From Dictyostelium discoideum (Eukaryota), in assembly GCA_000004695.1 (NCBI GenBank), contig CM000150.2, positions 3,552,001 through 3,616,000 of the forward strand: 64,000 nucleotides of DNA. The letters are read 5' to 3'. The notes beneath the pieces were generated by a model. The model was not told the origin of the DNA. It saw only the letters and a list, made by a program, of their open reading frames with translations, and ran no database searches. Position 1 is the first letter of the stretch. Each line of letters begins with the position of its first letter. Of this stretch, positions 32,969-61,015 are shown one piece after another. Made by a program: the position numbers and the translations under genes.

Positions 32969-33137
32969 TTTTTTTTTTTTCTTTTTCTTTTTTTTATTAT
33001 TTGTTATTTATTTTTTTATTTATTCCGCTTTTTAAATAAAAAAAAAAAAAATAAAAAAATTCTTTTTTAACCCTTTTTTTTTTTTTTTTTTTTTATATAT
33101 TTATAATACAAATTTAAATTACAAGATCAACAAATGT

Positions 33138-33176
<39 letters not shown>

Positions 33177-34114
33177 AATAATATAATACAAATAAATAAA
33201 ACAGATAAACAATATAAAAAACGAATAGCAAATGGTTATTTGTATTTGTTTTTATTATTATTATTATTATTATGATCAGCACAATTGTTGTTATTCTTTT
33301 TTGATTTTTTTTTTTTTAAAAAAAAAAAAAAATTTTGCTTTTTTTTTATTTTTTTTTTTTTTATTTTTTTTTTTTTTTTTTTTATTTTAAAAACAAAAAA
33401 AAAATTGCTATATTTTTTTTTTTTAAAAAAAAAAAAAAGATATTTTAGTCCCTATTTAAATTTTCTATTCATAAATAAAAAAAAAAAATTATTTGATTAA
33501 AAGTTTTATTATTTTTTTAAGGTGTTCGGAATCGGTTTACGTGAAAAGTAATTTTCATAAACAAATTCCAACTTTTTATTTTTTTTATTTTTTTTTTTAG
33601 TTTTTTTATTTTTTTTATTTTTTTTATTTCCCAAAACACTTTATTTCCACCTTTCATTTTATTTTTCATTTTTTTTTTTTTTTTCTTTTACAATGATTTA
33701 ATTTTATTTATTTTTAATGTAGATTTGGTGTAGATAAATATAGCACTCAAAAATACAAATGATATGAAATATAAAAAAAATGAATGTAACTATTCTGTTT
33801 TATTTTTTTTTTTAATCAAAAATTTTATTTTTAGAATTTAATTATTTATCATCCATTTTTTGTAATTGTTTTTTATTTTGAAGAACAACGAGTGGGGAAT
33901 AAATTTTATATAAAAAATAGATTTATATAAAAAAAAAAAAAAAAAAAGTTTGGTTGAATTTGTTTATTTTTCTAAGTTTTATTTATTTAATAAAATAAAA
34001 TATAAAAAAAAATAAAAAAATTAAATAATTTAAACCATCAACGAGCCATTCACGATTCGTTCATAGAAATGATAATAATAATAAAATGCGATAACAAGGG
34101 TGTTAATTAAAAAT

Positions 34115-34153
<39 letters not shown>

Positions 34154-34234
34154 TATTATTATTTTTTTTTTTTATTATTATTTTTTTTTATTATTATTAT
34201 TTTTTTTTTTTTTTTTTTTGTTATTTTAATTTTA

Positions 34235-34323
34235 TTATTTTTTTTTATCTTTGATGCACCATTGGCTATTATCTATATCTTTTAACTAATTTTTTTTTAT
34301 TTTTGGAATTAGTTTAAATTAAG

Positions 34324-34355
<32 letters not shown>

Positions 34356-36840: not shown

Positions 36841-37094
36841 TTCTTAGATATATTGTTTTTTTTTTTATTCTAGCATAAAAAAAAAAAAAAAAAAAAAATG
36901 AGACCGTTTTGTTTCAGAAAAAAAAAAAAAAAAATTGATTTTTTTGTGTGAAAAAAAAAAATGAATCTATTTTTGCACTAAAATCTAAATTTGGATTTTT
37001 TTAAAAAAAAAACGAACGAATTTTTTTTTTATTGTTTTCGAGCATCTCTGCAAATCTTTTTTAATTTTTTTTTTACGAAACAGTTCTAAAATGT

Positions 37095-37126
<32 letters not shown>

Positions 37127-37155
37127 CTCAAAAAAAAATTATTAAATCACAGAAT

Positions 37156-39075
37156 ATGTTTTTTTTAAATCATATTTAAATTAATAATATCATTTTTATT
37201 TTTTATTTTATATTGCAATTGTTTCACATTTGGTAGTTACACATTTGATACAAAAAATTGGTCAACAAATTGTGCACTATCATCATGTGTTTTTTATGAA
37301 TTTAATAATAATAATTATTATGATTTAAGTTCTATTGTCCACAATGATCATCAAGGTCCTTACAAAGCAAGTTTTCCTGCCGAACTTCCTGGTGGAATTC
37401 AAACACCTTATACAATGTATTTTAATCCTTGTTTTAATGATAATGTGTGTCCAGGTGGTCTTTCAGTAGGTAAATTCACAAAAAATTCTTAATTCCGTTG
37501 GTTCACTTTCAGAGCCACATTCTATAACATTAAATTCAGAAGGTATTTCTATTGAATATCAATCAGCTCTTTTACCATCAACAACATGTACCTCTAATGG
37601 TAACCGTAGAACTTTGGTTTTATTTATTACTTGTATCCCAACCGAAACATTTAAAATTATTGGTACTTATAACAGAAGAGTATTATGTGAACATACAATT
37701 TATATATCTTCAAAATTAGTTTGTAAAGATAGAGGAATATTATTTAATCAAGGTCTATTTTATGATTTAACACCAATGAAATTGTAAGTTGTTAAATTCT
37801 TTTTTATATTTTTTTTTTATTTCAATTTTTTTTTTTTTTTTGTTTTTAATAAAAAAAAAAAACACCAAACACGAAATTTCAAAATAAAAATAAAAATTAA
37901 AATATCTAACCACTTTTTTTTCAATTTTTTATTTTTTTCTTCCCACAGATTAACAAGCACTTCACACCAAATTACCAACAGTGACCAAACACAAGATATT
38001 CTCTTAATTTATTTGGAAATGTAAATAGATGTGGTACTTTCGGTACATCAACATTAAGTTGTCAATCATGTATTTTAACAGTTGCTAATAAAGCGATCGA
38101 TTATAAACTAGATTCAAGATATGCAACATCACCAAAATCAGTTATGGTAGGATCTCTCAGTCAACCAAGAATTACATTTACAAATGATGGAATAACTATA
38201 ATTTATAGCGCAATAGCAGGCTTCACTGAATGCTCATCAAATGGTAACAAATATTCATCAAAGTATATTTTAATTTGTGATCCATTCACAGAATATTATG
38301 TAGATAAATTTACATTAGAATCACAATGTATTTATCAAATTAAGGTTTATACTAAATACGCATGTCCAACATTACGTTTATTCAAACAAACACAATATTA
38401 TGACCTTTCACCATTGATGTTGTAAGTATTCAATTTATTCTTGTATTTCTTCAAACAGTTATTAATTAATAATAAAATAAATAATAGGGATTCAACAAGA
38501 AATTATACAACAAGTCATATTACAGACGGATATGAGTATAATATTGTATTCAATATTGGTAATAAAGCACAAATGTGTAGCGATGCATTTAATGATTATT
38601 ATTTTGCTTGTCAATATGATCCACGTTATAAAAGTTTTATTCCACTTGCAAAGGCAAGTTTAGGTCAAAGAGTAACATTTGATTTAAATCAAGTTAAATT
38701 CGAATATACTTCACCAATGTCAGGTTGTTTAAGAACTTTTATTATTGTTTTAACTTGTGATGAAAACCAACATTATCAATTAGTTTCAACTTTAGAATCT
38801 CCTGCATGTGTATATACAGTAACAATTAAAACTAAATATGTATGTGAATCAACAATTTATTACAATAGATTCGACTATACATATTATGATATTACTCCAA
38901 TAAAAACGTAAGTTTTAAATTAAATTTGAAATTAAATTTAAATATAAATAATAATAATAATAATATTAATAATCTTTATTGTCAACAACTAAAATATTAA
39001 TTTAATTAGAAAAAAAGATAGTCCAAATAAAATAGATATTGATGTTGGTGGATATCCATATAGAGTAAGTAAATT

Positions 39076-39120
<45 letters not shown>

Positions 39121-42100
39121 AACAAATATTTTTCTAATAGCTTTTTTATGGTATCGGTAATACTGTTGATTATTGCGGAGAACAAGTGGGATCAGTCCCT
39201 GGTGTAGATTATCAAGCTTGTCAATATCTCAGTGGTCTTGTTATTCAAGTCGGTAGTTTAAAAAATACATCAATGATTCTTAATAAGGATGGTATAAGTA
39301 TATATCAAACCTCACCATTCGATTTAACCAAAGTGTGCCAAAATACAAGATATCAAAGAGTAAACATTTTAAATATGGTATGTGATCCAACAGCAACAAA
39401 TGATGTGGTTAGCGCTACTGAGACTGCCAACGATTGGGCATGTGAATATACAATCGAAATTAAAACTAAATATGAATGTTCAATTAATTATGCACCAGTA
39501 TTACCGGTTGTTGGAAATCCATGTTCATACAGTTGTACACCACCAGGTGCTTTAAATCCAAAAGATATAGTTAGTGTACTTTTAAATTTAGGTGTTTGTT
39601 CTCAGAGATTAATAAATATGGTACAGGTGCAATCATTACTTAATATATTTAAAGATACTTGGGTTTCAAATCACAATGGGTATGATGATTGGATGGGTGG
39701 ACAACTTTATTCACTATTATTAACAGGTAAACCACAGTCAACAATTTCACCATATGTTATTTCAATTACACATGATAATTTAAGTACATATGGTACCAAT
39801 GGGTTAAGTAAAGCAAAAAATTCAATCAATGATTTTCTTACTATTACAAATGATCTTCTTGAAATTTCAAATCGTGCAGCCAGTTCAACCGTTACCAAAT
39901 ATACATATTCAGATGGAGCAATTACATAAACTTTTATCAACATCAACTGGAGGTCTTGCAATTATTAAATACAAAAATTTGCTATGCTACTATTCAATAG
40001 TCCCAAATTTACAAACTTTAATTATTGGGAGTTATTTGCTTTCTTGCCCATATTATTCACTACCAACTATACAGTGCACAGTTTAACACCATCAATAGGG
40101 AAAGTTGGAGATACTATCACAATTAATGGTCAAAATTTAGATACAGATATATATGATGTTTATTTCAACATTATTGATGACAACAGTAAAATTAAAGCAA
40201 CAATAACATCAAGAACCGTAAGTTTTGTAAAAGTAATTGTTCCAAATGGTTTTGGTTATGCATTAGTCTACACTCAAAATATACTTAATCCAACTACCTC
40301 TGATAAACTTTCATTTTCATATCCATCACCAGCGATTGTCAAAGTAATTAGTCAACCATTTAGTACAGATATCATCAATAGATTCTTTGTTATTGGTCAA
40401 AACCATCGTTCTTTAATAACCAATATTGTTATTAATCCATACATCGATAATATTGAAAAAGAAGCAATTTATTGTGAAATTGTTGTCGGTAAACAAGCGT
40501 CAAAGACTATATATCCAAGTGATTTAGATGAAAATCCAACAAATTATAATTTATATTATTATCCCCCAGCAGTTGTTGACATATCAGAAGTTTCAACTGA
40601 TGGTGGTGAAGTTATAATAAAAGGTACAAATTTTATTCCAGCCTCGCTTAAAGATCAAATTAATAATCAACCAATAATCGGTTCACCACATTCAGTAGAG
40701 TTTAATAATGTTTTATCTTCATCATGGACATGGATTGATTCAACACATGTAGAAGCCATCGTACAAAAAGGTATTGGTACAATCTCTACAATTGTAAATG
40801 TTGGTGGTCAAAGATCTGATTTAAATCCAATTCCTGTAAATTTTTACAAAAGACCTGAACTAGATAATAAAAAATATGAAAACTTTGCAAATAGTGATAT
40901 TTTAATAACTGGTTCTAATTTTGTGCCAGTTGGTTTTTCAGCAGGTTCATCAAGTTCTGTCAAAATTGGAGGTATTCCCTGTAACTCTGTAACATGGGTA
41001 GATTCAAAATCTGTTATTTGTAATGTGCCAATTGGAACTGGTGATAATTTAAATATCATCAAAAAACCGAATTAAATGATTATTTCTCATATTTAGGGCA
41101 ATGCGATTTCCTCTGTAGCGATTTATCAAATTTAGTAAGTTTTTAAACATTTTAATTACAGAAAAAAAAAAAAAAACTAAAAAATACTAATTTATTATCA
41201 TTTTTATCTCAAAGGAATTAGCAAAAGTTATTAGAGAGAATAAAAAAGATTTAAAGAGTACTCTTTTATTAACAGGTGTATGTTTAGAACAAATCGAGCA
41301 ATATAATTTCACAGATATTAATGATGAAATTGAATCAAGTTGGATTGAAAACTCAATTATTAATGATTGGACAAGTGGTAAATTCTATAATTATTTTAAA
41401 TCATCAGAATCATACTCAACAGTTAAAACACTTGCAAAATATATTACTCCAAAGAATCCATGTATTTATGATAATAAAAGAGTAAAGAATTCATTAGATT
41501 ACCATTTTGAAATCAATTCAGATATTTTCCATTTAATTGAACTTTCAATTTCATCAAAAATCAGTTATCCAGATTCACCATATGAAACTTATTTCTATGA
41601 ATCATCAAGCAACCCAGAGTATGGTCTTTCAATTATTACATTTGATTCAGCAATTTGTAGCTTTACAGAATCAACTATTCAAGACTATCAAAGTGGAAAA
41701 GAATTACAATCATGTTCAATCATTCCAATTATAAATCAAGTAATTAATCCAACAACAACACTTCAAGCACCATATCAATATTCACTTACAATTATTGGTA
41801 GATTATTTGATAGTTCAACTAGAATATTTTTATCAGGTTATGAATGTCCAATCATTGGTAATATCGCTACTAATCAAAATGATTATATTCAAACTCTTAG
41901 TTGTTCAGTACCACCAGAAATCGAATCATACTCGCCCTCTCAAATTAGTTTTTACAATGATTATAGTGAAAATAATATATAGAATATGAAGATGGATCTG
42001 ATGAAATTGTTGTTAAATTTAATAATGAACCAACAGCTATCATTGAAAACACAGAAACATACATTAAAATTAAAACCCTTAGTGGTGATGAATTTAATGT

Positions 42101-43487
42101 ACCAATTGCTGTAGAATTAAACGGTCAAATAAGTAATACAGATACTTCATTCGTTTACTCAAATCCAATAATTGAAAGTGTAACACCATCATCAAGTAGC
42201 TCAAAATCAAATACTAATATCATCATTAAAGGACAAAATCTTGGATATTTAACAAACACTCCCAAAATTACAATTGGAAGTAGTAATTGTTTAAATATCA
42301 AAACTATATCTCCAAATGAAATTCATCGTTATGAAATCAAGCGCAGGCACTAAACAATTAACATTAACCTATGAAAGTTATCAACCAACCTATTCACAAT
42401 TCACTCACAAAAACGATGATGACAGTGATAGCCACGATGATGATGATGATGACCATAAAAACAATAATGGACCAAAAAACACCATATTAAGTATTCTTGG
42501 AGGTATAATTGGAGCAGCAGCATCAGCGGCCGTAAGTGGATTTATAACAAGCATTTTCGGTGGTGCGACATCAGTAGCTACAGCAGCAGCAACAGCAACA
42601 GCTATTGCCGGTGCAATTACCGAAGGTGTTGCAGTGGCCTTTACAGGGGTATCAGTAATAGCAGCAACAGCAGGTGGTATTGTTATTACTTCAATTGTAA
42701 CAGCAACAGCCATCCTTATTTCAGGTGGAAGTACACAATCACCAAACCCAACGCCAACCGATAACTATTGGGTAAGATGTATGGTCGATTATTCAAGATT
42801 AACTTTACAAGTCGATAATCTTTACGGTCAAGATATAGTATGGATTGATGGTAATGGAATTTCATCAATTTTCAAAGAATCATTCTCTTGTAAACCTGAC
42901 CTTATTAACGATGGTATGATATGCACTCAACAACATCAAAATGGAACAAATTCAACAACCACATTTGGTAATTCAACATTAATTTGTCATATTGACCCAA
43001 CAAAATCATGTGAAATTTCACCACCATTCATCATACCATCCGATCCAATTGAAGATGATGAATATTCAAATATTTTAGAATGTCAATATAATCTCATTGA
43101 AAATTCATTATCAACACACTCTAATAATAGTCCATTAAGATGTTATAATAATGAAACTGAAAATTACTTCACTATGAATACTACACTTTCATGCTCAAAA
43201 GATGAATCATTAAGTCAAGATAAATATACGATTTCTTGTTTATCAGATACAGATGATACCCAAATCTTTTTCTATAAGAACTCAATTACATGCATTACAG
43301 ATTATCCATACTATAAATGTACAATAAAAATTAGTTAACGACTGGAACTAATGCTGAATGTCCAAAAAATGAAAAAGAACTTCATTATGATCTTTCAACT
43401 TCTCTAACATGCACAGATTATATCACACTTAAAAACTCCACTTATTCAATTTCATATTCAAATTACATTTGCATTAAAACAAAATAA
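37156..43487 (+). pseudogene. Degenerate, internally deleted copy of the giant MRH/IPT-repeat gene (paralog of 47415..57732)
   Basis: Colinear with 47.4-57.7 kb at roughly 85-95% nt identity. Defects: corrupted start and signal peptide (ATGTTTTTTTTAAATCAT...TAA); 17 nt deletion in exon 1; 1 nt deletion in exon 2; 11 nt deletion after ...SDGAIT; missing roughly 480 nt IPT unit; loss of roughly 3.9 kb of IPT repeats (joins at 41990); 22 nt and roughly 100 nt deletions near the 3' end. Only fragment ORFs remain. Confidence 0.75.
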
Positions 43488-43512
43488 AAACAATTAAAAA
43501 ATTTTAAAAAAC

Positions 43513-43592
43513 AAAATGATATAATAATTTAATGAAATAATTTAATTACTATTTTTACTATTTTTATTTTCGAAAAACTGTAATTAAATTAT
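43513..43592. repeat. Perfect 23 bp inverted repeat (ATTTAATGAAATAATTTAATTAC / GTAATTAAATTATTTCATTAAAT) with 31 bp spacer
   Basis: Read directly. Lies between the convergent 3' ends of the IPT pseudogene (+) and DNase paralog 2 (-). Confidence 0.8.
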
Positions 43593-43721
43593 TTCATTAA
43601 ATCATTATGTCACACCACCCAAAATTCAATTCTGAAAACTTTTTTTTTTATTTAATTACCCTTAATAAAAAATTAAATGTGAAAATAAATGTTATATTTA
43701 TTTTAGTATTGTTTTTTTTTT

Positions 43722-45990
43722 TTATTTCTTAGTGCACCATTTGGTTTTATCTAATTTTGAAAACTAAAAAAAAAAAAAAAATTTATTTTTGGAATTAGTT
43801 AAATTTAAAAAAAAATAAATTTTTGGGATAGTTAAATTTAAAAAAAAATTTAAATTAAAATATAATTAATACTTACATCTTTGGTATATTCACCCAAAAC
43901 TTTTGTAAATTCCTCAATGGAATTGATGTTTTGTAGATCACCATGTTTATTTTCAGTTAAGAGAATACAATAGATAAGATGATCTTGGCAATCTGGATGA
44001 TAATTAATGATTTTTGAGTCTGTATCACTTGGATAAGCTTTACATATTTTTTTATTAATTTCATTGTAATCCTTATCATCATGACCTTCTTCGCTATCAC
44101 TTTGATCGCCTTCGATTTTATTTGGGAATTTAAATGGTTCTAAATCATCTTTGATTTTAACTTCTTTCAATTGAATGATGTTTTCATTTTTAATAAATTT
44201 CAATTTTTTATAAAGTTCTTTTACTAAATCAATATTTTTTAAATCGATATATATCTTATCTGGGAAAGGTGCGAGTATTGATGTTGGTTCGATAACGGTA
44301 TTTTGTGTTATAGCAGTTATCGTTTCTTTACCATCTTTATTTTTTGATGAGGTAACTGTTAATGTTGATTCAACATAGATATCTTTAAACAATTGGTAAG
44401 ATTTGGATTTTTCAAAGCTACAAGTGACATCATCATTATCATCACATAAAATAATTTCCCCATTGATTGATGGAAACACATTGAAATCGAATAACTCTGA
44501 TTTGTATTCATTTGTAGTTTGATCCTTAAGTTGAGTTAATAATGGAATGTAAACATTGTCATAACCATAGTTATATTCATTTGAAAATAATTTATCTTCA
44601 TCTTTTTCATTATTGTAAACGATAATAAATGGATTCAAATGATAGTATTTTTCATCATCTCCATAACCTTTAACCTTGGTTTCAAAGTCTAACTTTCTGT
44701 TACCTAAAATTTTATTTAGATCCTTTGGATATTTAGCTATTAATCCGTTTAAATTCAACTTTTGACCTGCAATGCTATTTAATCTTAATGATTCTTTTTT
44801 AAGATATTGATTATTCTCTGGGTGTCTAATTATACCAACTCTTCTATAAAAGTATTCAGAAAGATATTTCATTTTATCACTGCAAAAAGCACCACCTCCA
44901 CGTGACTCTTGCTTTCCTTGCCAATTTAAATCACCAAAGCAAATAGTCCCACCACCGCCACCGCTATCTACTTTATCTATATTATTGAATTGATAAGAAA
45001 TTTTTGAATGGTCACTTCCTGAATCAGCACTAATAACTTTTGACCAAGGTGTTTCGAATCTGTAAGAAAGATAAATTGATTCAACTGCTTGAGAAATTGC
45101 ATTTTCACCTTTTGTAATCTTTGTTTGAGTATGGACCATTGTTTTAAAATTATTACCATTTTTAAAATTATCTATATAATGCCAAATTATAAAAAATTTA
45201 ATTTTTTCCTTGTGAGTTTCTTCAATTTTTTCATTATACTTTTTATAAAGGTTTTTATTTGTTGTTTGAATGAAGTAATCCCCTTTATTTTTACTCTCAT
45301 AAATTTTATTATAGTGAACATTTGTTTCTTTAGGTTTTAGAGTTAAATCTGATGATGTAATATCTTCGTTTAGAATTAATTTTGCCTATTTTAAGAATGT
45401 AAGTATGATGATTTATTAACACAAATTTATAATTAAAATTACTTACCAATTGTGACCATTTATTTAAATAAATAATTCCATTCCATATATCAGGATCACC
45501 ATCATTCTTTTTTTTAACCAAAATATAATCACTCATTAGACCATCCAATTTTTTAAAAGTTTTGGGAATTTCTTTTGCTAAATTTTCAATTACATCCAAA
45601 TTAATGACTCCTGGGCTTATCTTTTCAACCTCTGTATGGAGATTTTCGGAATAAAGATTGGCTGATGATACCTTTTTAGCCTTTTTACCAAGTCCTGTTG
45701 AAACTGTATTAATGGTTTGAATATTTAAATTACTATAAATAATATACTTTGGAATAATATGAAGTTCTTCTTTTGACAAAGTTATACAAATTGAATGTTG
45801 AGCATGTTGATTATTTAAAGTATCTTTGTCGTAATTAAAAAGAGGTTCATATCCTGTTTCTGGAGATTTTGGAACACTGTGAATTACATGAATTCCCCCT
45901 TCTTCATTCCAAATGAAAAATCCTTTTGCATGTGCCTTTTTTAAATAAATAAATTAAAAAAAAAAAATATGTTAACAAATAATGATAACC

Positions 45991-46021
<31 letters not shown>

Positions 46022-46413
46022 AAATAATAAACACAAACACTATCGGAACCACCACTGATCTGATCATTATAAGTCAAACTATTATATATAATTTTTTTAG
46101 ATTCATTTGGTAAACTCTGTTTGTATGTTGATGTAATAGGGTTTGGTTCTTTTGGATCTCTAATATTATAATTTGCAATTTCATTTATCTCTGAACTTCC
46201 TCCTTTTAATGTGTTATCAGTATAAATAGAACCTTTACTGTGACCTAATTGTTCTAAAAACCACCATTCGACATTCTTTTCTATTGTAACCCCATCCCCA
46301 AATACTTGACCATCCTTGTAAATATTTTTTGTTGTTATACATTTTGGAGGAACACAATAAATATGTGATATTAATACAAATAAATATAGAAAAATAATAT
46401 ATTTATTTCTCAT
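43722..46413 (-). CDS. Secreted DNase II-like nuclease with long C-terminal extension, paralog 2; exons (complement) 46039..46413, 45447..45935, 43877..45385, 43722..43763
   Basis: Same architecture as paralog 1. Signal peptide MRNKYIIFLYLFVLISHIYC. AHAKGFFIWNEEGGIHVIHSVP and DSGSDHSKISY...GGGAFC motifs. GTTTGT, GTAAGT, GTAAGT donors. Terminal micro-exon FSKLDKTKWCTKK*. Confidence 0.75.
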
Positions 46414-46483
46414 TTTCTTAAGTCTAATGTTATAATGTTTCAATTTTTTAATGGTATAAAAAAAAATTGGGTGTGTTTTTGCG

Positions 46484-46514
<31 letters not shown>

Positions 46515-47560
46515 GCTTTGTTGTCAACAAAGAAAAAAACCTAAAATTGGATCATTTAAAATAAAATAAAAAAACGAACGAAAATATTTTTTTTTAATCG
46601 TTTTTAGATGATTTTCCCACTTCTTTGATTATTGAAAATCTTTTAAATATTTTAGATTTTTTTTTTTATTTTTTTCGACCCATTATTTAATAAAAAAAAA
46701 AAATTATAAAAATTACCCCCACAAACCGTTTAGTTTTTTTTTTTTTTTCACAAAGCCTGGTTTTTATTTTTTTTGACACTTTTTAGCTTTGCATCTTTAT
46801 CGCTTTAAATACGTAAAATACAACATTTTTTTTAAAAAAAAAAAAAAAGTATGGTTAAAAAAAAAAAAAAATCATACTGAAATTAAAAAAAAAATGGTAA
46901 AATTTAAAATAGTTATATCATTTTTATTATTTATTTTATATTTTAATTGTTTCACATTTGGTAGTCATGTGTTTTTTATATTAATACAAATAAATATAAA
47001 AAAATAATATATTTATTTCTCATTTAAATTTTTTAATGGTAAAAAAATTGGGTGTTTTTTGTGAAAAAAAAAAAAAAATAGCCTTTTTGTGAAAAAAAAA
47101 GAAAAAAAAAAATCTAAAATTGGATCATTGAAAAAATAAAATAAAAAACGAACGAAAATTTTTTTTTAATCGTTTTTAGATGATTTTTCCACTCCTTTTA
47201 TTATTGAATCTTTTTGAACATTTTTCTACCGCTTGGTTTTTTTTTTTTTTACAAAGCTTTGCTAGTTTTTATTTTTTTTTTACACTTTTTAGCTTTGCAT
47301 CTTTAAAACTTTAAAATACGTTTTGGAAAATACTATATTTTTTTTTTTCAATCAACCACACTCTTTTTTTTTTTTTTTTTAAAAAAAATAATCATATTGA
47401 AATTAAAAAAAAAAATGGTAAAATTTAAAATAGTTGTATCATTTTTATTATTTATTTTATATTGTAATTGTTTCACATTTGGTAGTTACACATTTGATAC
47501 AAAAAATTGGTCAACAAATGGTACACTATCATCATGTGTTTTTTATGATTTTGTAAATAA
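46395..47560. repeat. Tandem duplication (about 590 bp unit) of the bidirectional promoter region plus the 5' ends of both flanking genes
   Basis: 46850-47040 holds a second copy of the giant-gene start (ATGGTAAAATTTAAAATAGTTATATCATTTTTATTATTTATTTTATATTTTAATTGTTTCACATTTGGTAGTCA) fused head-to-head to a second copy of the DNase 5' end (reverse of ATGAGAAATAAATATATTATTTTT...). The intergenic block (AAAATTGGGTGT...CGAACGAAAAT...AATCGTTTTTAGATGATTTT) occurs twice. Junction ORF 46789..47007 is a by-product. Confidence 0.7.
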
Positions 47561-49250
47561 CGATTATTATGATTTAAGAGCTATTGTCATACCTGATCAT
47601 CAAGGTGCTTACAGAGCAAGTTTCACAGCTGAACTTTCTGGTGGAATTCAAACACCATATACAATATATTTTAATCCTTGTTTTAATGATCATATGTGTC
47701 CAGGTGGTCTTTCAGTAGGTTGTACTTTTATTGTACAAAATTCACAAAGAGTTCTTAATTCTGTTGGTTTACTTTCAGAATCTCATTTTGTTACATTTAG
47801 AACAGATGGTATTACTATTAAATATCAATCAGCTCTTTTACCATCAACAACATGTGCCTCTAATGGTAACCGTAGAACTATGATTTTAGTTATCACTTGT
47901 GATCCAAATGAACCATTTAAAGTTACAAGTACTTATAACAGAAGAGTGTTATGTGAACATACAATTTATATCGCTTCAAAATTAGTATGCAAAAATAGAG
48001 GAGTATTATTTAATCAAGGTCTATTTTATGATTTAACACCAATGAAATTGTAAGTTATTTAATTCTTTTTCATATTTATTTTTTTTTATTTTTTTTTTTT
48101 TAAAATAATTATCCAAAAATAAAAAAAAAAAAAAAAGGATCAAACACGAAATTTCAAAATAAAAAAATCTAATCTTTTTTCACTTTTTTTTATTTTTTTT
48201 TAATTTTTTTATTTTTATTTTTTTTTCCCACAGATTAACAAGCACTTCACACCAAATCACCAATGATGACCAAACAAAAGATATTCTCTTTAATTTATTC
48301 GGAAATGTAAATAGATGTGGTACTTTCGGTACATCAACATTAAGTTATCAATCATGTATTTTAACAGTTGCTAATAAAGCGATCGATTATAAACTAGATT
48401 CAAGATATGCAACATCACCAAAATCAGTTATGGTAGGATCTCTCAGTCAACCAAGAACAATTACATTTACAAATGATGGAATAACTATAATTTATAGTTC
48501 AACAACTGGTTTCACAGAATGCTCATCAAATGGTAACAAATATTCATCAAAGTATATTTTAATTTGTGATCCATTCACAGAATATTATGTAGATAAATTT
48601 ACATTAGAATCACAATGTATTTATCAAATTAAGGTTTATACTAAATACGCATGTCCAACATTACGTTTATTCAAAGAATCACAATATTATGACCTTTCAC
48701 CATTGATGTTGTAAGTATTCAATTTAATTAAAAAACCTTTTTAATGTTTTATTCTTGCACTTCTAACAATTATTAATAATAAAATAAATAATAGGGATTC
48801 AACAAGAAATTATACAACAGGTCATATTACAGGCGGATATGAATATAATATTGTATTCAATATTGGTAATAAAGCACAAATGTGTAGCGATGCATTTAAT
48901 GATTATTATTTTGCTTGTCAATATGACCCACGTTCTAAAAGTTTTATTCCACTTGCAAAGGCAAGTTTAGGTCAAAGAGTAACATTTGATTTAAATCAAG
49001 TTAAATTCGAATATACTTCACCAACAACAACTAGTTGCCCATTAAATTCCAATAAAAGAACTTTTATTATTGTTTTAAATTGTGATGAAAACCAACATTA
49101 TCAATTAGTTTCAACTTTAGAATCTCCTGTATGTGTATATACAGTAACAATTAAAACTAAATATGTATGTGAATCAACAATTTATTACAATAGAATTAAT
49201 ACTACCTTTTATGATATTACTCCAATAAAAACGTAAGTTTTAAATTAAAT

Positions 49251-49336
<86 letters not shown>

Positions 49337-52300
49337 CTTTATTAACAACCAAAACTATTAATTTTAATTAGAACGAAAGATAGTCCAAAAACTGTAGATA
49401 TTGTTGTTGGTGGATATCCATATAAAGTAAGGGATAATTTTTAAAATTTTTTTTTTTTTTGTTTTTTTTTTTTTAAACAAACATCAAACGTGTCAAACTG
49501 AAATTTAAATATTTTATGTATATATTTAAAAATATTTACTAACTTTACTTTATTAATTTTTTATAACAGCTTTATTACAGTATAGGTAATACTGTTAATT
49601 ATTGTGCAAATCAAGTGGAGTCAGTTCCAGGGGTTGATTATCAAGCTTGTCAATATCTCAGCGGTCTTGTTATTCAAGTCGGTAGTTTAAAAAATACATC
49701 AATGTATCTAAGTAATAATGGTATAAATATATATCATACTACACCATTTGATTTAACCAGAGTATGCCAAAATACAAGATATCAAAGAGTGAACTCTTTA
49801 AATATGGTATGTGATACAACAGCAATAAACGTTGTGGTTAGCGCGACTGAGACTGCCGATGATTGGGCATGTATATATACAATCGAAATTAAAACCAAAT
49901 ATGCATGTCCAATTAATTATGCACCAGTATTGCCAGCTGTTGGAAATCCATGTTTATACAGTTGTACACCACCAGGTGCTTTAAATACAAAAGATATAGT
50001 TAGTGTACTTTTAAATTTGGGCGTTTGTTTCTCAGAGATTAATAAATATGGTACAGGTGCACAATCATTACTTGGTATATTCAACAATACTTGGGTTTTA
50101 AACCACAATGGATATGATGATTGGATGGGTGGACAACTTTATTCACTATTATTAACAGGTAAACCACAAACATCGATTTCACCATATGTTATTTCAATTA
50201 CACATGATAATTTATGTACATATGGTACCAATGGGTTAAGTAAAGCAAAAAATTCAATCAATGATTTTCTTACTATTACAAATGATCTTCTTGAAATTTC
50301 AAATCGTGCAGCCAGTTCAACCGTTACCAAATATACATATTCAGATGGAGCAATAACATTATCAACACATAAACTTTTATCAACATCAACTGGAGGTCTT
50401 GCAATTATTAAATACAAAAATTTGCTATGCTACTATTCAATAGTTTCAAATTTACAAACTTTAGTTATTTCGAATTATTTGCTTTCATGTCCATATTATT
50501 CACCAACCATTACATTGTACAGTTTAACACCACCAACAGGGAAAATTGGAGATACTATCACAATTAATGGCCAAAATTTAGATACAAATAGATATGATGT
50601 TTATTTCAACATAATTGACGACAACAGTAAAGTCAAAGCAACAATAACATCAAGAACCGTAAATTCTGTAAAAGTAATTGTTCCAAATGGTTTTGGTAAT
50701 GCATTAGTCTACACTCAAAATATACTTAATCCAACTACCTCTGATAAACTTTCATTTTCATATCCATCACCAGCGATTGTCAAAGTAATTAGTCAACCAT
50801 TTAGTACAGATATCATCAATAGATTCTTTGTTATTGGTCAAAACCATCGTTCTTTAATAACCAATATCACCATTTATCCATACATCGATAATATTGAAAA
50901 AGAAGCAATTTATTGTGAAATTGAAAAGTATTGTCCAAGTTCATCAAAAATTCCATCAATTCCAGAATCAGCAGTAGGTCATCCATGTATTAATTCAACA
51001 GTTTACTCTGAGAATTCCCAGTTTTTCGATTATTCCAAGTATGATGTTTTTGTTTGTATCAAATCATCATTAGGTGTTGGAAGTGGTATCATTAAATTCC
51101 CATCACAAACATTTACATTTGCATACTCTTATAAAGCACCTCTCTTATATTATACACAACCTGGCATTCGTATTCCAACCGATGGTGGTAGTTTTCAATT
51201 GAGTGGTAAAAACTTTCCACCAACACAAGAAATCATTGATCTCGGTTTAAACACATCTGTAATCATTTGGAATAATGATAATTTTGTTACATTCAAAGGA
51301 ACAAATCTTACAAGCACCAATATCAATTGGAAGAGTTCTAAATCGATTTTATGTGTTGCACCACCAGGTTTCGGTGGACCATTCATCGTTACGGTAACTG
51401 TCGGTAAACAAGCGTCAAAAACTATATATCCAAGTGATTTAAATGAAAATCCAATAGATTATTATTTATATTATTCTCCACCAACTTTGCTCGACATATT
51501 AGCAGTTCCAACTGATGGTGGGGAAACTATAATAAAAGGTACAAATTTTATTCCAGTCTCGCTTGCAGATCAAATTAATAATCAATCATTAATTGGTTCA
51601 CCAAATTCAGTCACGTTTAATAATGTTTTATCTTCATCATGGAAATGGATTAACTCAACACATGTAAAAGCCATCGTACAAAAAGGTATTGGAGCAATCC
51701 TTACAATTGTAAATGTTGGAAGCCAAAGTACTGAAACGAGTCCATATCCCGTAATTTTTTATAAACAACCTGAATTAGATAATAAAAAATATGAAAACTT
51801 TGCAAATAGTAATATTTTAATAACTGGTTCTAATTTTGTACCAGTTGGTGTTTCAGCAGGTTCATCAAGTTCTGTCAAAATTGGAGGTATTCCTTGTAAC
51901 TCTGTAACATGGGTAGATTCAAAATCTGTTATTTGTAATGTACCAATTGGAACTGGTGATAATTTAAATATCCAAGTAACAGTTGGAGGTCAACAAACCG
52001 AATTAAATGATTATTTCTCATATTTAGGGCAATGCGATTTCCTCTGTAGCGATTTATCAAATTTAGTAAGTTTTTAAACATTTTAATTACAGAAAAAAAA
52101 AAAAAAACTAAAAAATACTAATTTTTTACATTATAATCTCAAAGGAATTAGAAAAAGTTATTAGAGAAAATAAAAAAGATTTAAAGAGTACTCTTTTATT
52201 AACAGGTGTATGTTTAGAACAAATCGAGCAATATAATCTCACATATATTAAAAATAAAATTGAATCAAGTTGGATTGGAAGTTCAATTATTAATGATTGG

Positions 52301-55300
52301 ACAAGTGGTAAATTCTATAATTATTTCAAATCATCAGAATCATACTCAACAGTTAAAACACTTGCAAAATATATTACTCCAAAGAATCCATGTATTTATG
52401 ATAATAAAAGAGTAAAGAATTCATTAGATTACCTTTTCGAAATCAATTCAGATATTTTCCATTTAATTGAACTTTCAATTTCATCAAAAATCAGTTATCC
52501 AGATTCACCATATGAAACTTATTTCTATGAATCATCAAGCAACCCAGAGTATGGTCTTTCAATTATTACATTTGATTCAGCAATTTGTAGCTTTACAGAA
52601 TCAACTATTCAAGACTACCAAAGTGGAAAAGTATTACAATCATGTTCAATCATTCCAATTATAAATCAAGTAATTAATCCAACAACAACACTTCAAGCAC
52701 CATATCAATATTCACTTACAATTATTGGTAGATTATTTGATAGTTCAACTAGAATATTTTTATCAGGTTATGAATGTCCAATCATTGGTAATATTATTAC
52801 AAATCAAAATGATTATATTCAAACTCTTAGTTGTTCAGTACCATCAGAAATCAAATCATACTCGGCCTCTCCAATTAGTTTTTACAATGGTTATAGTGAA
52901 AATAATATATATAATTTCTTGTTGGATTTTAAAAAATCATTCTTTTTTATATATCCAATTTCAACAGTAACTCAAATTCAATACCCATCAAGTGGTCCAA
53001 TTCAAATGAATTCTGAAATTAAAGTAATTGGTTTTAATTTCTTCCCATATGGTATTACAAATCCAAGCATTCAAGTTTTTATTGATGATCTTGAATTAAC
53101 AGGTACTATCTTTGGATTAACAAGCATAAATGGAGTTGATTCATTTTCATTTATTGCTTCTGGTTTAGGTTCTTTAAAGTATGTAAAAAAAAAAAAAAAA
53201 TTAAAAAAAAAATTAAATTATTAATATTTAAAATATATTTTTTTCAAAGTTACATTCAATTATTTTATAGTGATAGTTTACCAATGATTATAAACGATGA
53301 TATTAATTTAGAATTTTCATTTGAAAGACCAATTGTTAATAGTATATTACCAACAAATGGAGATTACAATACAAAGGTTACAATTAATGGTAATAATTTT
53401 AGAAAAGGTCAATCAGTAAAAATTGGAGACATATTAGTAAATGATATTGAATTCATTTCAAATCAAAAGATTATTGTTTCAGCACCATTTGGATTTATTA
53501 ATGGACTTGTAGTTGTTTATTCAGATGATCAATACAGTTTAGAAGAAATATCATTTAGTTATCCTTCACCAATTATAGACCAAGTCATTCTTTCAAATTA
53601 TGAATCAAAATTAAACACAACAGGTACAAATTATTTCACAGTAATAGGTAGAGGTTTAGGTACATACATTGCAGAACAAGTCGATATTATTATTAACCAA
53701 GAGTTTTATGCAAGTTGCGAATTCGATTTCTGTGAAAGTTTAGAAATTATTGAAGATATAGATATAAAAGATCAAGGAATTTGTCAATATTTAAAATATA
53801 AAAATTATCAATATATCGATGAAAACTTTGATATATTAAATTGTATTTTAGCTGATTCGATTGGTAAAGATAAATCAATCAGTATCAAAATTTCAGAATT
53901 CCAAAACCAAACTTTCACCTACTCTTATTATGAACCATGGATTGAAAAATTAACACAAAACTCTTCATCAGCAACAACTGATGGTGGTGAAGTTATCGTT
54001 ATAAATGGTTACAACTTTTTACCATTCGAAAATTTAAGTCCATACTATGAAAACAATGAAACTATTGCACAATGGTTAAATCAATCAGAAATATTAATTG
54101 GTGAAAGCTATCTTTGTCAATCAATTAATTGGACCAATTCCTATGAATTAAATTGTACAATCCCACCGGGAATTGGTGTTAATCATACAATCATTGTAAA
54201 AGTAGGCCTTCAATCATCAAATCATACTGATTATTTGTATTCTTACGATCCACCAAAACTTGATACAATCAATAATTCCACCAAAAATGAGACACATTAC
54301 TATTCTTCAACAGATGGTAACAATGAAATTATAATAACAGGTAATAACTTTATTCCAAAAGAGTTATCAGATCATTACAACCAGAATGAAAATAAAACTA
54401 TAAATTCAATACTATTAGGTAAACAATATTGTAATGAAACTATTTGGATTAATTCAACAATAGTTAAATGTAAACCATTAGCAGGTATTGGGTCAAATTA
54501 CAAAATAAACATTAAAGTTGGTAATCAAAATTCAAATGAAACCATTTACTTCTCATATGAGAAGCCAATTTTAGATTTAAAGAATTACACAGGTTCAACA
54601 AATGGTAATACTGAAATTACAATAACAGGTATCAACTTTATTCCAAAAGAATTAGCAGATAATAATAATTTCAATCAATCAGAGAACTATATAATGATTG
54701 GTGATAATAAATGTAATGAAACTATTTGGATCAATTCAACAACAGTTAAATGTAAACCAATATCAGGTACTGGTACCAATCATAGAGTTATCATAACAGT
54801 TGGTAATCAAAACTCAAATGAAACGGTCTACTTTTCATATGATAAACCAATTTTAGATATTAAAAACTATAGTAGTCCAACTGATGGCAATACTGAAATC
54901 ACAATTACAGGTGAAAACTTTATTGAAAATTATAATCAAGAAAAACATAATGAAAATGATAATTTCGTTAGAATCGGTGAAAATAAATGTAATGAAACAA
55001 AGTGGATAAATTCGACAACAATTAAATGTAAATTAATTCAAGGTATTGGTTTAGATTATAAAATAGTTGTAACAGTCGCCAATCAACAATCAAATGAAAA
55101 TGTTTTCTTTTCATATGAAAAACCAATGATTGATAGTAAAACACTATTAGCATCAACCAGTGGTAGTGAAACTATTAAAATTACAGGTACCAATTTCATT
55201 CCATCAACTTTAGTAGAACATTACAACAAAGAAGAAAATAAAGATAACTCAATAAATTCAGTTACTATCAATAACGAGTTTTGTAATGATATTACATGGA

Positions 55301-57732
55301 TTAACTCAACAGAACTAACATGTAAACCATTAGCAGGAGTTGGAACTAATCATACTATATTCATTTTGGTTGGAACTCAAAAATCAAATCAAGTAAAATC
55401 ATTCTCATATAAACCTCCAAAGATTGAAGAGTTTAAATACTACACAGCACCAACACATTCCAATAAAATTATTACTATAACTGGTGAAAACTTTATTCCA
55501 ATCGAATTATTATCAAAAGACAACAGCAATAGTTCAGTACTCATTGATAATATAAAATGTGAAGAAATCAAATGGATTGATTCTACAAAAGTTTCATGTC
55601 AAGTTCCAGTAGGTCAAGGTAAAGATTTATCGATTAAAGTTAAAATTGAAAATCAAGAAACTGAAGAAAATCAACAATTTTCATATGATAAACCATTTAT
55701 TCAATCAATCAATCCAAATAAAGGAAGATGTAATCAAGAAGTATTAATTACAATTCAAGGTGATAGTTTTGGAAAGAGTGATCAACTAATTAAAATTGGT
55801 AATAACGAATGTCAAGATATTCAATTCTATCCAAATCATACATTTACATGTAAAGTTCCAATCGTGGAGAATTCAATTAAATCCATTGTTTTATTAAATG
55901 TTGGAAATCAAGATTCAAACGATAACATTACATATAAATACTATGGACCACCAGAAATTAAAAGTATTGGTTTACCATCATATCTTTCATTCAAAGGTGA
56001 TGATTTAATAACAATCATTGGTAATAACTTTATAGAATATGATGATGGATCTGATGAAATTGTTGTTAAATTTAATAATGAACCAACAGCTATCATTGAA
56101 AAAACAGAAACATCTATTAAAATTAAAACTCTTAGTGGTGATGAATTTAATTTACCAATTGCTGTAGAATTAAATGGTCAAATAAGTAATATCGATACTT
56201 CATTCGTTTACTCAAATCCAATAATTGAAAGTGTAACACCATCATCAAGTAGCTCAAAATCAAATACTCATATCACCATTAAAGGACATAATCTTGGATA
56301 TTCAACAAACACTCCCAAAATTACAATTGGAAGTAGTAATTGTTTAAATATCAATACTATATCTCCAAATGAAGTTCGTTGTATAGTGTTGAAATCAAGC
56401 GCAGGCACTAAACAATTAACATTAACCTATGAAAGTTATCAACCAACCTATTCACAATTCACTCACAAAAACGATGATGACAGTGATAGCCACGATGATG
56501 ATGATGATAAAGACAATAATGGACCAAAAGATACCATAATAAGTATTATCGGAAGTGCAATTGGAGCAGCAGTATCAGCAGCCATAAGTGGACTAATAAC
56601 AAGCATTTTCATTGGTGGAACATCAGTAGCCACAGCAGCAGCAACAACAACAGCAACAGGTACCGCGATTGCAACAGCAACTACAGCGTCAACAGCAACA
56701 GCTATTGCCAGTGCAACGACCGAAGGTGTTGCAGTAGTCTTTACAAGGGTATCAGTAATAGCAGCAACAGCAGGTGGTGTTGTTATTACTGCAATTGTAA
56801 CAGCAACAGTCATCCTTATTTCAGGTGGAAGTACACCATCACCAACTCCAACTATAACTCCAACTATTTCACCAACTCCAACACCAACCGATAACTATTG
56901 GGTAAGATGTATGGTCGATTATTCAAGATTAACTTTACAAGTCGATAATCTTTACGGTCAAGATATAGTATGTATTGATGGTAATGGAATTTCATCAATT
57001 TTCAACGAATCATTCTCTTGTAAACCTGATCTTATTAACGATAGTATGATATGCACTCAACAACATCAAGATGGAACAAATTCAACAACCACATTTGGTA
57101 ATTCAACATTAATTTGTCATATTGACTCAACAAAATCATGTGAAATTTCACCACCATTCATTATACCATCCGATCCAATTGAAGATGATGAATATTCAAA
57201 TATTTTAGAATGTCAATATAATCTCATTGAAAATTCATTATCAACACACTCTAATAATAGTCCATTAAGATGTTATAATAATGAAACTGAAAATTACTTC
57301 ACTATGAATACTACACTTTCATGCTCAAAAGATGAATCATTAAGTCAAGATAACAATACGATTTCTTGTTTAGCAGATACAGATGATACTCAAATCTTTT
57401 TCTTTAAGAACTCAATTACATGCATTACAGATTATCCATACTATAAATGTACAATGAAATCTGAACCATCACAAGATGATAACATAATTCCAGAACCAAC
57501 ATTACCACCAACTCCATCAATTGATGATGATTCCACATGTATTTATGATTCAGCCAATCCATATTCAATAGATCTCCAACCAACGATTGGAACTAATGTC
57601 AAATGTCCAACAAATGAAAAAGAACTTCATTATGATCTTTCAACTTATCTAACATGCACAGATAATACCACCCATAAAAACTCCACTTATTCAGTTTCAT
57701 ATTCAACTTATGTTTGCATTAAAACAAAATAA
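47415..57732 (+). CDS. Giant secreted/transmembrane protein (about 3200 aa): signal peptide, 4 MRH-like domains, about 20 IPT/TIG repeats, long Ala/Thr/Gly hydrophobic segment, Cys-rich C-terminal domain. Exons 47415..48049, 48234..48710, 48795..49232, 49372..49426, 49570..52065, 52145..53178, 53271..57732
   Basis: Signal peptide MVKFKIVVSFLLFILYCNCFTFG. MRH-like units end ...RRTMILVITCDPNE...VLCEHTIYIASKLVC, ...KYILICDPF...QCIYQIKVYTKYACP, ...RTFIIVLNCDENQ...CVYTVTIKTKYVCES, ...VNSLNMVCDTT...WACIYTIEIKTKYACP. Many IPT/TIG units of form P.I..I...S..GGT.ITI.G.NFIP......I..G...C....W.NST.I.C..P. Introns (GTAAGT donors) keep phase. Exon 52145..53178 is open for 1034 nt but has no ATG/GTG/TTG, so it is absent from the ORF track. 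Ends TAA at 57730-57732. Confidence 0.7.
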
Positions 57733-60888: not shown

Positions 60889-60950
60889 GTTATTATTTTT
60901 GTTTTATTTATTTTAATATAAAAAAAAAAAATTATTTATATATAAAAAAA

Positions 60951-61015
60951 AAAAGAGTACAGTTGAGAAAAAAAAAAGAGTACAGTTGAGAAAAAAAAAA
61001 GAGTACAGTTGAGAA
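60951..61015. repeat. Three tandem copies of a 22 bp unit GAGTACAGTTGAGAAAAAAAAA(A)
   Basis: Read directly in the intergenic region between DNase paralog 3 and the 61.4 kb gene. Confidence 0.85.

Follow-up and report, generated by a model that had tools for sequence, protein, structure and literature searches.

A doubled divergent promoter shared by DNase-II-like and giant IPT/TIG genes of Dictyostelium discoideum: sequence evidence for an old relic in a gene family with many rearrangements

Multiplied head-to-head gene pairs are known in Dictyostelium discoideum from the tgrB/C locus. In the parts of the published account drawn on here, an IPT/TIG gene and its partner are arranged head to head with a short shared spacer, the pair has been multiplied as a module, many of the copies are truncated or pseudogenized, and recombination or gene conversion has been at work. 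The locus described below lies in the same organism and resembles tgrB/C in all of these respects. It is unlike tgrB/C in that the partner is a DNase-II-like gene and not a tgr gene and in that the TIG protein has ∼3200 aa; nothing ties the DNase/TIG pair to allorecognition, and the likeness is one of paired-module architecture only. A doubled promoter with stubs is not described in those parts of the tgrB/C account.

Partial tandem gene duplication provides a structural parallel, with a head-to-tail repeat, a microhomology junction, intact outer genes and dead inner fragments. The repeated unit found here (its two copies are termed A and B) differs in containing no complete gene: it consists of a divergent promoter flanked by two opposite 5' ends, and both relics are therefore start-codon stubs that face each other. 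In the duplication–degeneration–complementation model, reportedly set out by Force and coworkers in 1999, duplicated genes are said to partition their enhancers. Each copy of the present repeat likewise appears to keep the part belonging to one gene and to lose that of the other, but the genes themselves are single, only their shared promoter is doubled and, in a count by events, the complementarity has little statistical weight (p = 0.19–0.26). Strain AX4 carries a large tandem duplication on chromosome 2 (PMC12745789); this is also a structural duplication in the same species, but it is recent, specific to a laboratory strain and far larger, whereas the A/B repeat measures 0.6 kb, appears old and is identical in two assemblies.

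The window analysed was a stretch of 64 000 nucleotides (contig CM000150.2, positions 3 552 001–3 616 000, assembly GCA_000004695.1), and positions are given relative to its first letter. The doubled promoter lies in module L2 of the gene pair, in which the two genes stand head to head, with start codons at 46413 (− strand) and 47415 (+ strand) as read in an earlier note on this DNA and in agreement with the gene models of the annotated D. discoideum assembly. The same arrangement is found in module L1 of the window and in modules C2a and C2b of a second cluster 1.1 Mb away. Splice reconstruction of the L2 DNase-II-like gene gave a protein of 804 aa. Its N- and C-terminal exon ORFs matched the Pfam family DNase_II (PF03265) with 25.9 and 26.2 bits (cutoff 23), weak matches on account of which the gene is regarded as a divergent member of the DNase II family; PF03265 is also recorded for the annotated DNase models of this locus and of the second cluster. 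The giant gene matched Pfam TIG (PF01833) with E = 3.5e-110 over ten stretches in one exon ORF and with E = 8.6e-26 in another, and the N-terminal repeats of its protein showed only a faint precomputed PRKCSH-like match. In GCA_054883475.1 an 804-aa gene model with PF03265 occupies the equivalent place of the DNase gene, and a 3198-aa model begins at the position corresponding to 47415. Used as a protein query, the first exon of the giant gene gave no match, the database evidently lacking the 3198-aa and 804-aa models of the locus, and exact look-ups of the exon-level ORFs and of ten ORF variants, including the junction ORFs, gave no match in the protein collection.

Table 1. Coordinates of the gene pair, the repeat units and their parts in the window.
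Feature	Position	Strand	Remarks
DNase-II-like gene, module L2, intact	43722..46413	−	804-aa model, 3 introns, start codon 46413
Giant IPT/TIG gene, module L2, intact	47415..57732	+	3198-aa model
Repeat unit A	46368..46977		610 nt; real DNase 5' end, promoter copy A and giant-gene stub
Repeat unit B	46978..47546		569 nt; DNase stub, promoter copy B and real giant 5' end
DNase-side and central part, copy A	46414..46815		Near the state of the single-copy paralogues
Giant-side core, copy A, rearranged	46834..46871		A15-GTATGGTT-A15
Giant-gene 5' stub, presumably dead	46894..47007	+	37-aa ORF MVKFKIVISFLLFILYFNCFTFGSHVFFILIQINIKK, then stop
15-mer	46965..46979	+	TCATGTGTTTTTTAT; equals giant coding nt 118–132 (47532–47546); marks the true giant-gene breakpoint
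Unit junction	46976..46979		Giant ...TTTTTTAT/GATT meets DNase ...GTGAT/ATTAATAC
DNase 5' stub, presumably dead	46976..47023	−	ATG at 47023; 15 codons MRNKYIIFLYLFVLI, then TAA created by the junction
DNase-side part, copy B, decayed	47024..47300		From four-way alignment with single-copy outgroups
Giant-side core, copy B	47308..47414	+	Holds CAATCAACCACACTC and a T17 tract (47364–47380)
Single-copy spacer, older paralogous module L1	36841..37168		Strongly diverged from units A and B
Single-copy spacer remnant, module L3	60890..61192		L3 has a DNase gene and no giant gene

The spacer between the paired genes measures 328 bp in L1, 483 bp in C2a, 548 bp in C2b and 1001 bp in L2, the length of the last being due to its doubling; in gene pairs with a bidirectional promoter the distance is commonly below 1 kb. 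It had been claimed that the intergenic region and the first codons of both genes are duplicated in tandem with a stub-to-stub junction, and that the paralogous L1 spacer is single-copy. The L1 spacer was indeed found in a single copy, as was that of L3, and self-alignment confirmed the repeat: units A and B represent one segment repeated head to tail, which contains the whole divergent spacer, 46–48 nt of DNase coding sequence and 132 nt of giant IPT/TIG coding sequence, and the repeated block is far longer than the ∼150 bp named as a minimum in the earlier note. The repeat search returned a 48-nt pair at 98% identity (46368–46415 and 46978–47025), an 86-nt pair at 95% (46880–46965 and 47401–47486) and several blocks in between. 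A gapped alignment of 46368–46965 with 46978–47486 contained 480 ungapped columns, 90.6% of them identical, and ∼20 indels amounting to 147 nt, the large ones being of 19, 14 and 61 nt; a central block of ∼100 nt (46541–46640 and 47114–47210) is ∼95% identical in the two units. The local alignment score of A against B was 508, compared with 49.3 ± 7.4 (maximum 74) for 200 dinucleotide shuffles, and BLAST of the window against itself recovered the pair with E = 8e-59 and 6e-54. Tandem Repeats Finder reported only an A29 run in the spacer region and misses the A/B repeat because its period (520–610) exceeds the limit of 500.

The units meet at 46977/46978, within the interval of 46960–46985 proposed earlier, where giant coding nt 132 is fused to DNase codon 15/16. 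The 'AT' at 46978–46979 can be derived from either parent sequence and is thus a microhomology of 2 nt. A giant-gene stub, put at about 25 codons in the earlier note, does precede the junction: 24 codons are in register (MVKFKIVISFLLFILYFNCFTFGS) and are followed by 15 nt out of frame that correspond to coding nt 118–132. Its ATG lies at 46894 and not at 46895. The stub differs from 47415–47486 at two of 72 nt, and the DNase stub from 46368–46415 at one of 48 nt. The out-of-frame 15-mer occurs exactly at 37283, 46965 and 47532 only within the 64 kb, from which it follows that the copied segment once reached 47546 and that the giant stub later lost 46 nt. Both stubs encode parts of signal peptides only and are probably silent, non-functional relics.

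The two promoter copies differ in which half has been altered. Copy A carries, on its DNase side, the tracts A9 (46458–46466; T9 on the sense strand) and A29 (46484–46512), and its DNase-side and central part is probably the working promoter of the DNase gene. Its giant-side core looks like an inversion of ancestral AATCAACCATAC-T14, through which the sense-strand poly-T tract before the giant stub would have been lost. GTATGGTT was found once in the 64 kb, the reverse complement of the corresponding C2a piece reads A14-GTATGGTTGATT, and a search of the 64 kb for AACCATAC returned no occurrence. Copy B shows the opposite pattern. Its DNase side has private deletions of ∼24–27 nt (5'UTR beside the stub ATG), 4 nt (TATA), 15 nt and 61 nt, its A-runs are shortened from A9 to A7 and from A29 to A15, and 17 private events were counted over 140 columns of the four-way alignment. 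The T17 tract of its giant-side core ends ∼34 nt before the giant ATG, and this core is probably the working promoter of the giant gene. In Dictyostelium, sense-strand poly-T tracts end ∼2 bp before the transcription start (PMC3371697).

Comparison was made with the homologous single-copy spacers of the second cluster, which measure 483–548 bp and separate the same two gene types. Pairwise identities were 97.1% for A and C2b, 96.0% for B and C2b, and 90.6% for A and B. Mismatches in the left block numbered 5/263 (A–C2b), 7/252 (A–C2a) and 11/225 (B–C2b), those in the middle block 4/136, 5/135 and 6/68, respectively, and those in the giant-proximal block 7/95 with 12 gaps (A–C2b), 16/94 (A–C2a), 2/109 (B–C2b) and 24/95 (A–B), so that the deviating unit is B towards the DNase gene and A towards the giant gene; the distance of B to A, C2a and C2b is ∼5% in the left block and 8–12% in the middle block. 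A Woolf test for interaction of region and unit, calculated by hand from the mismatch counts, gave p of ∼0.008 for sites that are not independent; after merging of the private changes into independent events the spatial asymmetry was not significant (Mann–Whitney p = 0.26, Fisher p = 0.19). An estimate from a four-way MAFFT alignment (8.4% private divergence) that made unit B 'two to four times too old' was dropped, as pairwise alignments reduced the value to ∼4% in the left block. Neutral decay beginning at about the split from the modules of the second cluster could account for such a divergence. All four spacers share several conserved blocks, such as CTAAAATTGGATCATT, AACGAACGAAA and ACACTTTTT.GCTTTGCATCTTT; these may serve as leads for common regulatory elements only.

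As to the origin of the arrangement, an old local tandem duplication of ∼0.73 kb with subsequent decay of the halves facing the stubs is about as likely as not and is favoured over a deletion. The complete divergent promoter, the first 46–48 nt of DNase coding sequence and the first 132 nt of giant coding sequence would have been copied, with a single non-homologous junction of 2 nt microhomology joining giant coding nt 132 to DNase codon 15/16. The promoter half adjoining each intact gene would then have changed little from its single-copy form. The poly-T tract on the sense strand ahead of the giant stub would have given way to an inversion in unit A, most of the DNase 5'UTR and the upstream tracts would have been lost from unit B through four deletions, and the giant stub would have lost its 46 nt after the duplication. 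A shared promoter of ∼0.5 kb would in this way have become two neighbouring promoters 1 kb apart, each probably dedicated to one gene, copy A to the DNase gene and copy B to the giant gene.

The earlier note had given tandem duplication as the origin. The structure it described is right, but duplication is not the sole route to it, since a deletion within a two-module array yields the identical arrangement. An ancestral order DNase_x–spacer_x–giant_x–DNase_y–spacer_y–giant_y, like that of modules a and b in the second cluster, might have collapsed through a non-homologous deletion of ∼12.5 kb which fused the two neighbouring modules, removed giant_x from codon 44 onwards and DNase_y down to codon 15, and left the spacers side by side; units A and B would then be older paralogues and not copies of one another. 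This is a possible origin, although held with clearly less confidence. It accords with the gene pair being the module of tandem arrays, with three modules in the window and at least 2.5 in the second cluster, and with the frequency of truncations and multi-kilobase deletions in the DNase/TIG family. The 3' part of the L1 giant gene matches giant_0 of the second cluster at 97.3%, the L2 DNase gene and unit A align without interruption to DNase_a and the spacer following it as far as 46965, and from 47308 onwards unit B and the L2 giant gene match spacer_b and giant_b at 96.7%; the window is thus collinear with the second cluster on both sides, the difference being precisely one giant body and one DNase body missing from the window.

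The relationships among the copies also speak for a deletion and against a duplication. Units A and B are not closest relatives by distance, a comparison confounded by unequal constraint and gene conversion. The giant side of A shares variants with C2a (ACAACA, CCATAC and TTT at codon 17), while that of B has the alternative variants in common with C2b. The trees of the flanking genes are discordant: L2 lies outside C2a + C2b in the DNase tree (5.5–5.8% versus 4.1%) and is sister to C2b in the giant-gene tree (2.3% versus 4.7–4.9%). The duplication needs at least one gene conversion between the clusters to explain the latter tree. The deletion, however, also requires a conversion event, because the L2 DNase gene is not closest to DNase_a and the a and b copies of the DNase gene are closer to each other. 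Further points against it are that the DNase side of unit B is not particularly close to the C2b spacer (0 supporting sites) and that two genes are postulated of which no trace is left. Informative sites among the four taxa A, B, C2a and C2b were few (1, 2 and 2 unmasked; 1, 1 and 0 masked), a single shared derived site supporting A + B against C2a + C2b and 1–2 sites each alternative grouping. The position of the breakpoints, at most 132 and at most 48 nt from the start codons, appears natural for a sub-kilobase duplication; for a 12.5-kb deletion in genes of 10 and 2.7 kb it would probably be a coincidence, estimated at ∼2e-4 if unselected. On balance we infer a duplication. A truncated DNase copy (L003) was considered as a reciprocal deletion product and rejected, because its ends disagree with the stubs and the TIG gene beside it is, in DNA sequence, unrelated.

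Whichever way the second spacer arose, an effect of it on expression is plausible. The duplication followed by complementary loss of the inner cores may have resolved the bidirectional promoter into two dedicated unidirectional ones, a reading which we regard as tentative. If true, the DNase-II-like gene would be uncoupled from the regulation of its giant TIG partner in module L2 alone, and the locus would be a natural case of subfunctionalization acting on a promoter rather than on genes, as all other modules keep one shared spacer.

It is improbable that the extra copy is itself functional, a reading of present function that fits either origin. The inner promoters would fire and give long leaders with upstream ORFs of 37 and 15 aa, convergent antisense RNA over the junction, or an alternative first exon modulating both genes. 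Both stub ATGs and their ORFs are intact, T7 and T15 tracts on the sense strand still precede the DNase stub in unit B, and the central block remains well conserved between the units. Against this, unit A has inverted poly-A where, by the start-site rule (PMC3371697), poly-T would be expected ahead of the giant stub, the 46-nt deletion in the giant stub breaks its frame and most of the 5'UTR that preceded the DNase stub has been deleted. An Rfam scan of 46200–47700 at E ≤ 1 gave no match and hence no sign of a known noncoding RNA gene in the spacer.

The duplication had been called recent, with possible polymorphism among strains. The coding stubs, at 97–98% identity to the real 5' ends, would suit this view, yet the units differ at 9.4% of alignable sites and by the indels given above, an inversion and four sizeable deletions have accumulated, and each unit is closer to the spacers 1.1 Mb away than to the other. 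The A–B divergence equals or exceeds the roughly neutral divergence between L2 and the second cluster (3.7–5.5%). GCA_054883475.1 shows zero differences from the window over 39080–49929, and so no polymorphism, and the doubled spacer is fixed at least in the sequenced laboratory-type lineage. A recent origin is therefore very unlikely. An assembly artefact, a mis-joined or doubled repeat to which the extreme A/T richness and the long homopolymers of this region, hard to assemble as they are, might have given rise, can be dismissed, since the independent annotated assembly is identical over this interval and two units of 90.6% identity with distinct indels cannot be one sequence assembled twice.

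Judged from its sequence, the doubled promoter is the old trace of a rearrangement within a family of genes that has undergone many and, on its own, an ordinary small structural relic. It nevertheless constitutes a natural construct, as the same divergent promoter is present in one genome both as a single copy, in the second cluster, and in doubled and half-decayed form, in L2; comparing the expression of the gene pairs would indicate which parts of a bidirectional promoter serve which gene. With its non-homologous breakpoints, frequent pseudogenization and an apparent gene conversion linking clusters separated by 1.1 Mb, the locus documents the turnover of a family of tandem DNase-II-like/giant TIG gene pairs, similar in style to that of the tgrB/C recognition locus.

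The divergent spacer between the DNase_II-domain gene and the giant IPT/TIG gene of module L2 is present as two head-to-tail copies, termed unit A and unit B. Positions 46368-46965 aligned with 46978-47486 in exact-seed repeats, in gapped alignment and in a self-BLAST of the window; the repeated spacer that the earlier note had placed between start codons at 46413 and 47415 is thus real by all three methods, and both start codons occupy the same positions in the gene models of assembly GCA_054883475.1. The gapped alignment of A with B comprised 480 ungapped columns at 90.6% identity (45 mismatches; 20 gap events covering 147 nt, indels of up to 61 nt) and scored 508, compared with 49 ± 7 (maximum 74) in dinucleotide shuffles. 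The L2 spacer measures 1001 nt from ATG to ATG.

Coordinates of the modules, genes, spacer copies and inter-cluster high-identity segments (L002, second cluster)
Feature	Position	Strand	Remarks
Module L1	34221-43547		
Module L2	43643-57803		
Module L3	58175-61192		DNase gene and partial spacer only
DNase_II-domain gene, L2	ATG 46413	-	804-aa model in GCA_054883475.1
Giant IPT/TIG gene, L2	ATG 47415	+	3198-aa model in GCA_054883475.1
Unit A	46368-46977		610 nt
Unit B	46978-47546		569 nt
High-identity segment	40484-41985		pairs with L002:140-1657
High-identity segment	51533-52186		pairs with L002:13599-14250

The copied unit extends from codon 15/16 of the DNase gene across the entire spacer into the giant gene, and the junction reads ...TTTGGTAGT-CATGTGTTTTTTAT|ATTAATACAAATAA... 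with two bases, AT, common to both parent sequences at the joint (microhomology). Across the 64 kb the 15-mer TCATGTGTTTTTTAT has only three copies, one at the junction and one in each of the giant genes of L1 and L2, the latter at 47532-47546. From its presence at the junction and in L2 it follows that the copied segment once reached coding nucleotide 132 of the giant gene and that the giant stub, the dead 5' end left at the junction, later lost 46 nt. This stub retains a 37-aa ORF from 46894 (+) and the DNase stub a 15-codon ORF from 47023 (-), the TAA stop of which was created by the joint; the coding content of both is limited to signal-peptide-like residues.

The window is extremely A/T-rich (G+C 17-36%) and contains retrotransposons with an adjoining tRNA gene. 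Contig JBTAPE010000039.1 of GCA_054883475.1 (D. discoideum) matched 26854-49929 at 99.76%. All 13 differences lay within 27423-39080, and 39080-49929, including the doubled spacer, was identical. Ten of the 13 were length changes in A or T homopolymers, the remaining three being two substitutions and an indel of TTTTA next to a T run; they may be true strain differences or effects of sequencing technology. Pfam matches to DNase_II were weak and TIG domains were many. A protein search returned few D. discoideum paralogues, and the 804-aa and 3198-aa proteins were themselves not among the matches although present in the annotated assembly, so that negative D. discoideum protein searches are not proof of absence.

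An LTR retrotransposon at 19120-26116 carries 390-bp direct repeats (19120-19509 and 25727-26116) enclosing gag/pol ORFs with reverse transcriptase, RNase H and integrase domains; the repeats are 100% identical and the insertion therefore looks young. Its neighbours are a non-LTR reverse-transcriptase ORF (15457-18891, -) and a tRNA-Asn gene (27770-27844). Retroelements clustered at tRNA genes are typical of Dictyostelium, and we take this group to be an instance.

The DNase(-)/giant(+) pair recurs as a module, three times in the window. A second cluster on the same contig, 1.1 Mb away, contains giant_0, DNase_a-spacer-giant_a (C2a) and DNase_b-spacer-giant_b (C2b). Divergence from L2 in the DNase region was 5.8% for C2a, 5.5% for C2b, 9.0% for L3 and 14.8% for L1, and in the giant 5' region 2.3% for C2b and 4.7% for C2a; C2a and C2b are thus much nearer to L2 than L1 or L3 are. 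Each has its spacer in one copy only (483 and 548 bp, respectively); both spacers align well with A and with B and were used as outgroups. Identity between the clusters is a mosaic, with some kilobase segments at 97-98% and neighbours at 84-92%, which points to gene conversion or recombination across 1.1 Mb; judged from the 97-98% segments, gene conversion in the family appears clearly rampant.

Each cluster has a degenerate giant gene ahead of an intact one. The L1 copy (37160-43329) has ATC at the start-codon place (37169-37171) with an in-frame TAA just upstream, is ∼3 kb shorter than L2 in its TIG repeats and is split in the annotated assembly into 713-aa and 1032-aa models with a predicted start at an upstream ATG (36898); it is probably a pseudogene. 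giant_a reads ATG GTA AAA TTT TAA (L002:10399-10413), with TAA at codon 5, and has a 263-nt deletion in exon 1 (L002 ∼10700); its annotated start is a new ATG arising from an A-to-G change in the spacer. The L2 gene has internal tandem repeats at 54306-55516 (period ∼285 nt, 66-78% identity) representing repeated TIG units, and it is to this repeat-rich part that deletions in the giant genes of L1 and C2a map. Module L3 has no giant gene; an unrelated ORF begins at 61527, and in the L3 spacer a ∼24-nt motif (AAAAAAAAGAGTACAGTTGAG) is repeated three times in tandem at ∼60945-61015. A truncated DNase-II-like copy at a third site on the contig, ∼450 kb from the locus (L003:9898-11635, 463-aa model), shares 94% identity with 43621-45398 and 93% with the L3 copy; the neighbouring TIG/ComC_SSD gene resembles neither the window nor the second cluster at the nucleotide level.

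The earlier note's doubled structure stands, but its description as recent does not. Under one aligner and scoring scheme, identities were 97.1% (A-C2b), 94.8% (A-C2a), 96.0% (B-C2b), 93.6% (B-C2a) and 96.5% (C2a-C2b), making A-B the most divergent of the six pairs. With homopolymers and gap edges masked (258 columns) the ranking was unchanged, and one site grouped A with B against one for the surviving alternative grouping. At roughly neutral sites L2 differed from the second-cluster modules by 3.7% (intron-like gaps of the giant gene) and by ∼5.5% (DNase intron-like gaps and third codon positions); set against these values, the A-B divergence of 9.4% dates the event to about the time when L2 separated from those modules. 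The mutation rate of D. discoideum is very low, of the order of 1e-11 per site per generation, at which several per cent divergence would represent a very long time.

As to origin, we favour a local tandem duplication of ∼0.73 kb, with roughly an even chance of being correct. It is supported by the placement of the L2 DNase gene outside C2a plus C2b, as expected if the a/b doubling occurred within the second cluster, and by the lack of affinity of the DNase side of B to the C2b spacer. A ∼12.5-kb deletion in an array of two modules, with loss of giant_x from codon 44 onward and of DNase_y down to codon 15, predicts the same structure and is somewhat unlikely. Compared with the second cluster, to which it is collinear on either flank, the window is short of precisely one giant body and a single DNase body; C2a-type variants occur on the giant side of A and C2b-type variants on that of B, and the two flanks give discordant trees, all of which fit a deletion. 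Its near-start breakpoints would, however, be a coincidence, the ends being free to fall anywhere in 10-kb and 2.7-kb genes, whereas breakpoints no more than 132 and 48 nt from the start codons are natural for a sub-kilobase spacer event and so support local duplication. Either origin requires at least one gene-conversion event.

Mismatches to C2b in A and B, respectively, were 5/263 and 11/225 in the DNase-side block (B being ∼5% from A, C2a and C2b), 4/136 and 6/68 in the middle block (with a private 61-nt deletion in B), 7/95 with 12 gaps and 2/109 in the giant-proximal block (A-C2a 16/94, A-B 24/95) and 1/72 each in the giant stub (A-B 2/72). By these counts unit A is near-ancestral beside the intact DNase gene and scrambled beside the giant stub, and unit B is near-ancestral beside the intact giant gene and eroded beside the DNase stub. 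Unit A has A15-GTATGGTT-A15 where the ancestral form is AATCAACCATAC-T14; GTATGGTT, which the window contains only once, is the C2a variant in reverse complement, and we read the change as a probable inversion of small size. Transcription in D. discoideum starts ∼2 bp beyond the end of a poly-T tract on the sense strand (PMC3371697); on this rule the predicted rightward core promoter of A is gone. Unit B keeps a T17 tract (47364-47380) ∼34 nt before the giant ATG. Four segments are missing from B: ∼24-27 nt immediately ahead of the DNase stub ATG, the tetranucleotide TATA, and stretches of 15 and 61 nt. T7 and T15 tracts remain on the sense strand of the DNase gene, and the predicted leftward core of B is accordingly shortened, not clearly destroyed. 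Position tests with changes merged into events gave p = 0.19-0.26, and a site-level region-by-unit interaction calculated by hand gave p ∼ 0.008, several of the A differences, however, arising from one inversion; statistically, complementary decay is only suggestive. The C2b spacer has its own ∼48-bp tandem duplication in the giant-proximal promoter (L002 ∼19070-19170; CTTTAAA(A)TACGGTTTGGAAAATAC..AATCAACCA), one copy resembling A and C2a and the other B.

As a structure the doubled spacer is unexceptional, either a partial tandem duplication or a collapsed array, joined with microhomology. The nearest described arrangement is tgrB/tgrC of D. discoideum, which shares the module logic; the partner here is DNase-II-like, and the likeness is one of module architecture. 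Subfunctionalisation at the promoter level, uncoupling a bidirectional pair, is rather unlikely. Most probably each intact gene now uses the adjoining promoter copy, the inner halves and stubs are decaying relics, and a shared 0.5-kb bidirectional promoter has in effect been split into two adjacent promoters. Inner promoters that stayed active would have given transcripts with long leaders and short upstream ORFs, and antisense RNA converging across the junction; loss of these promoters would therefore be expected.
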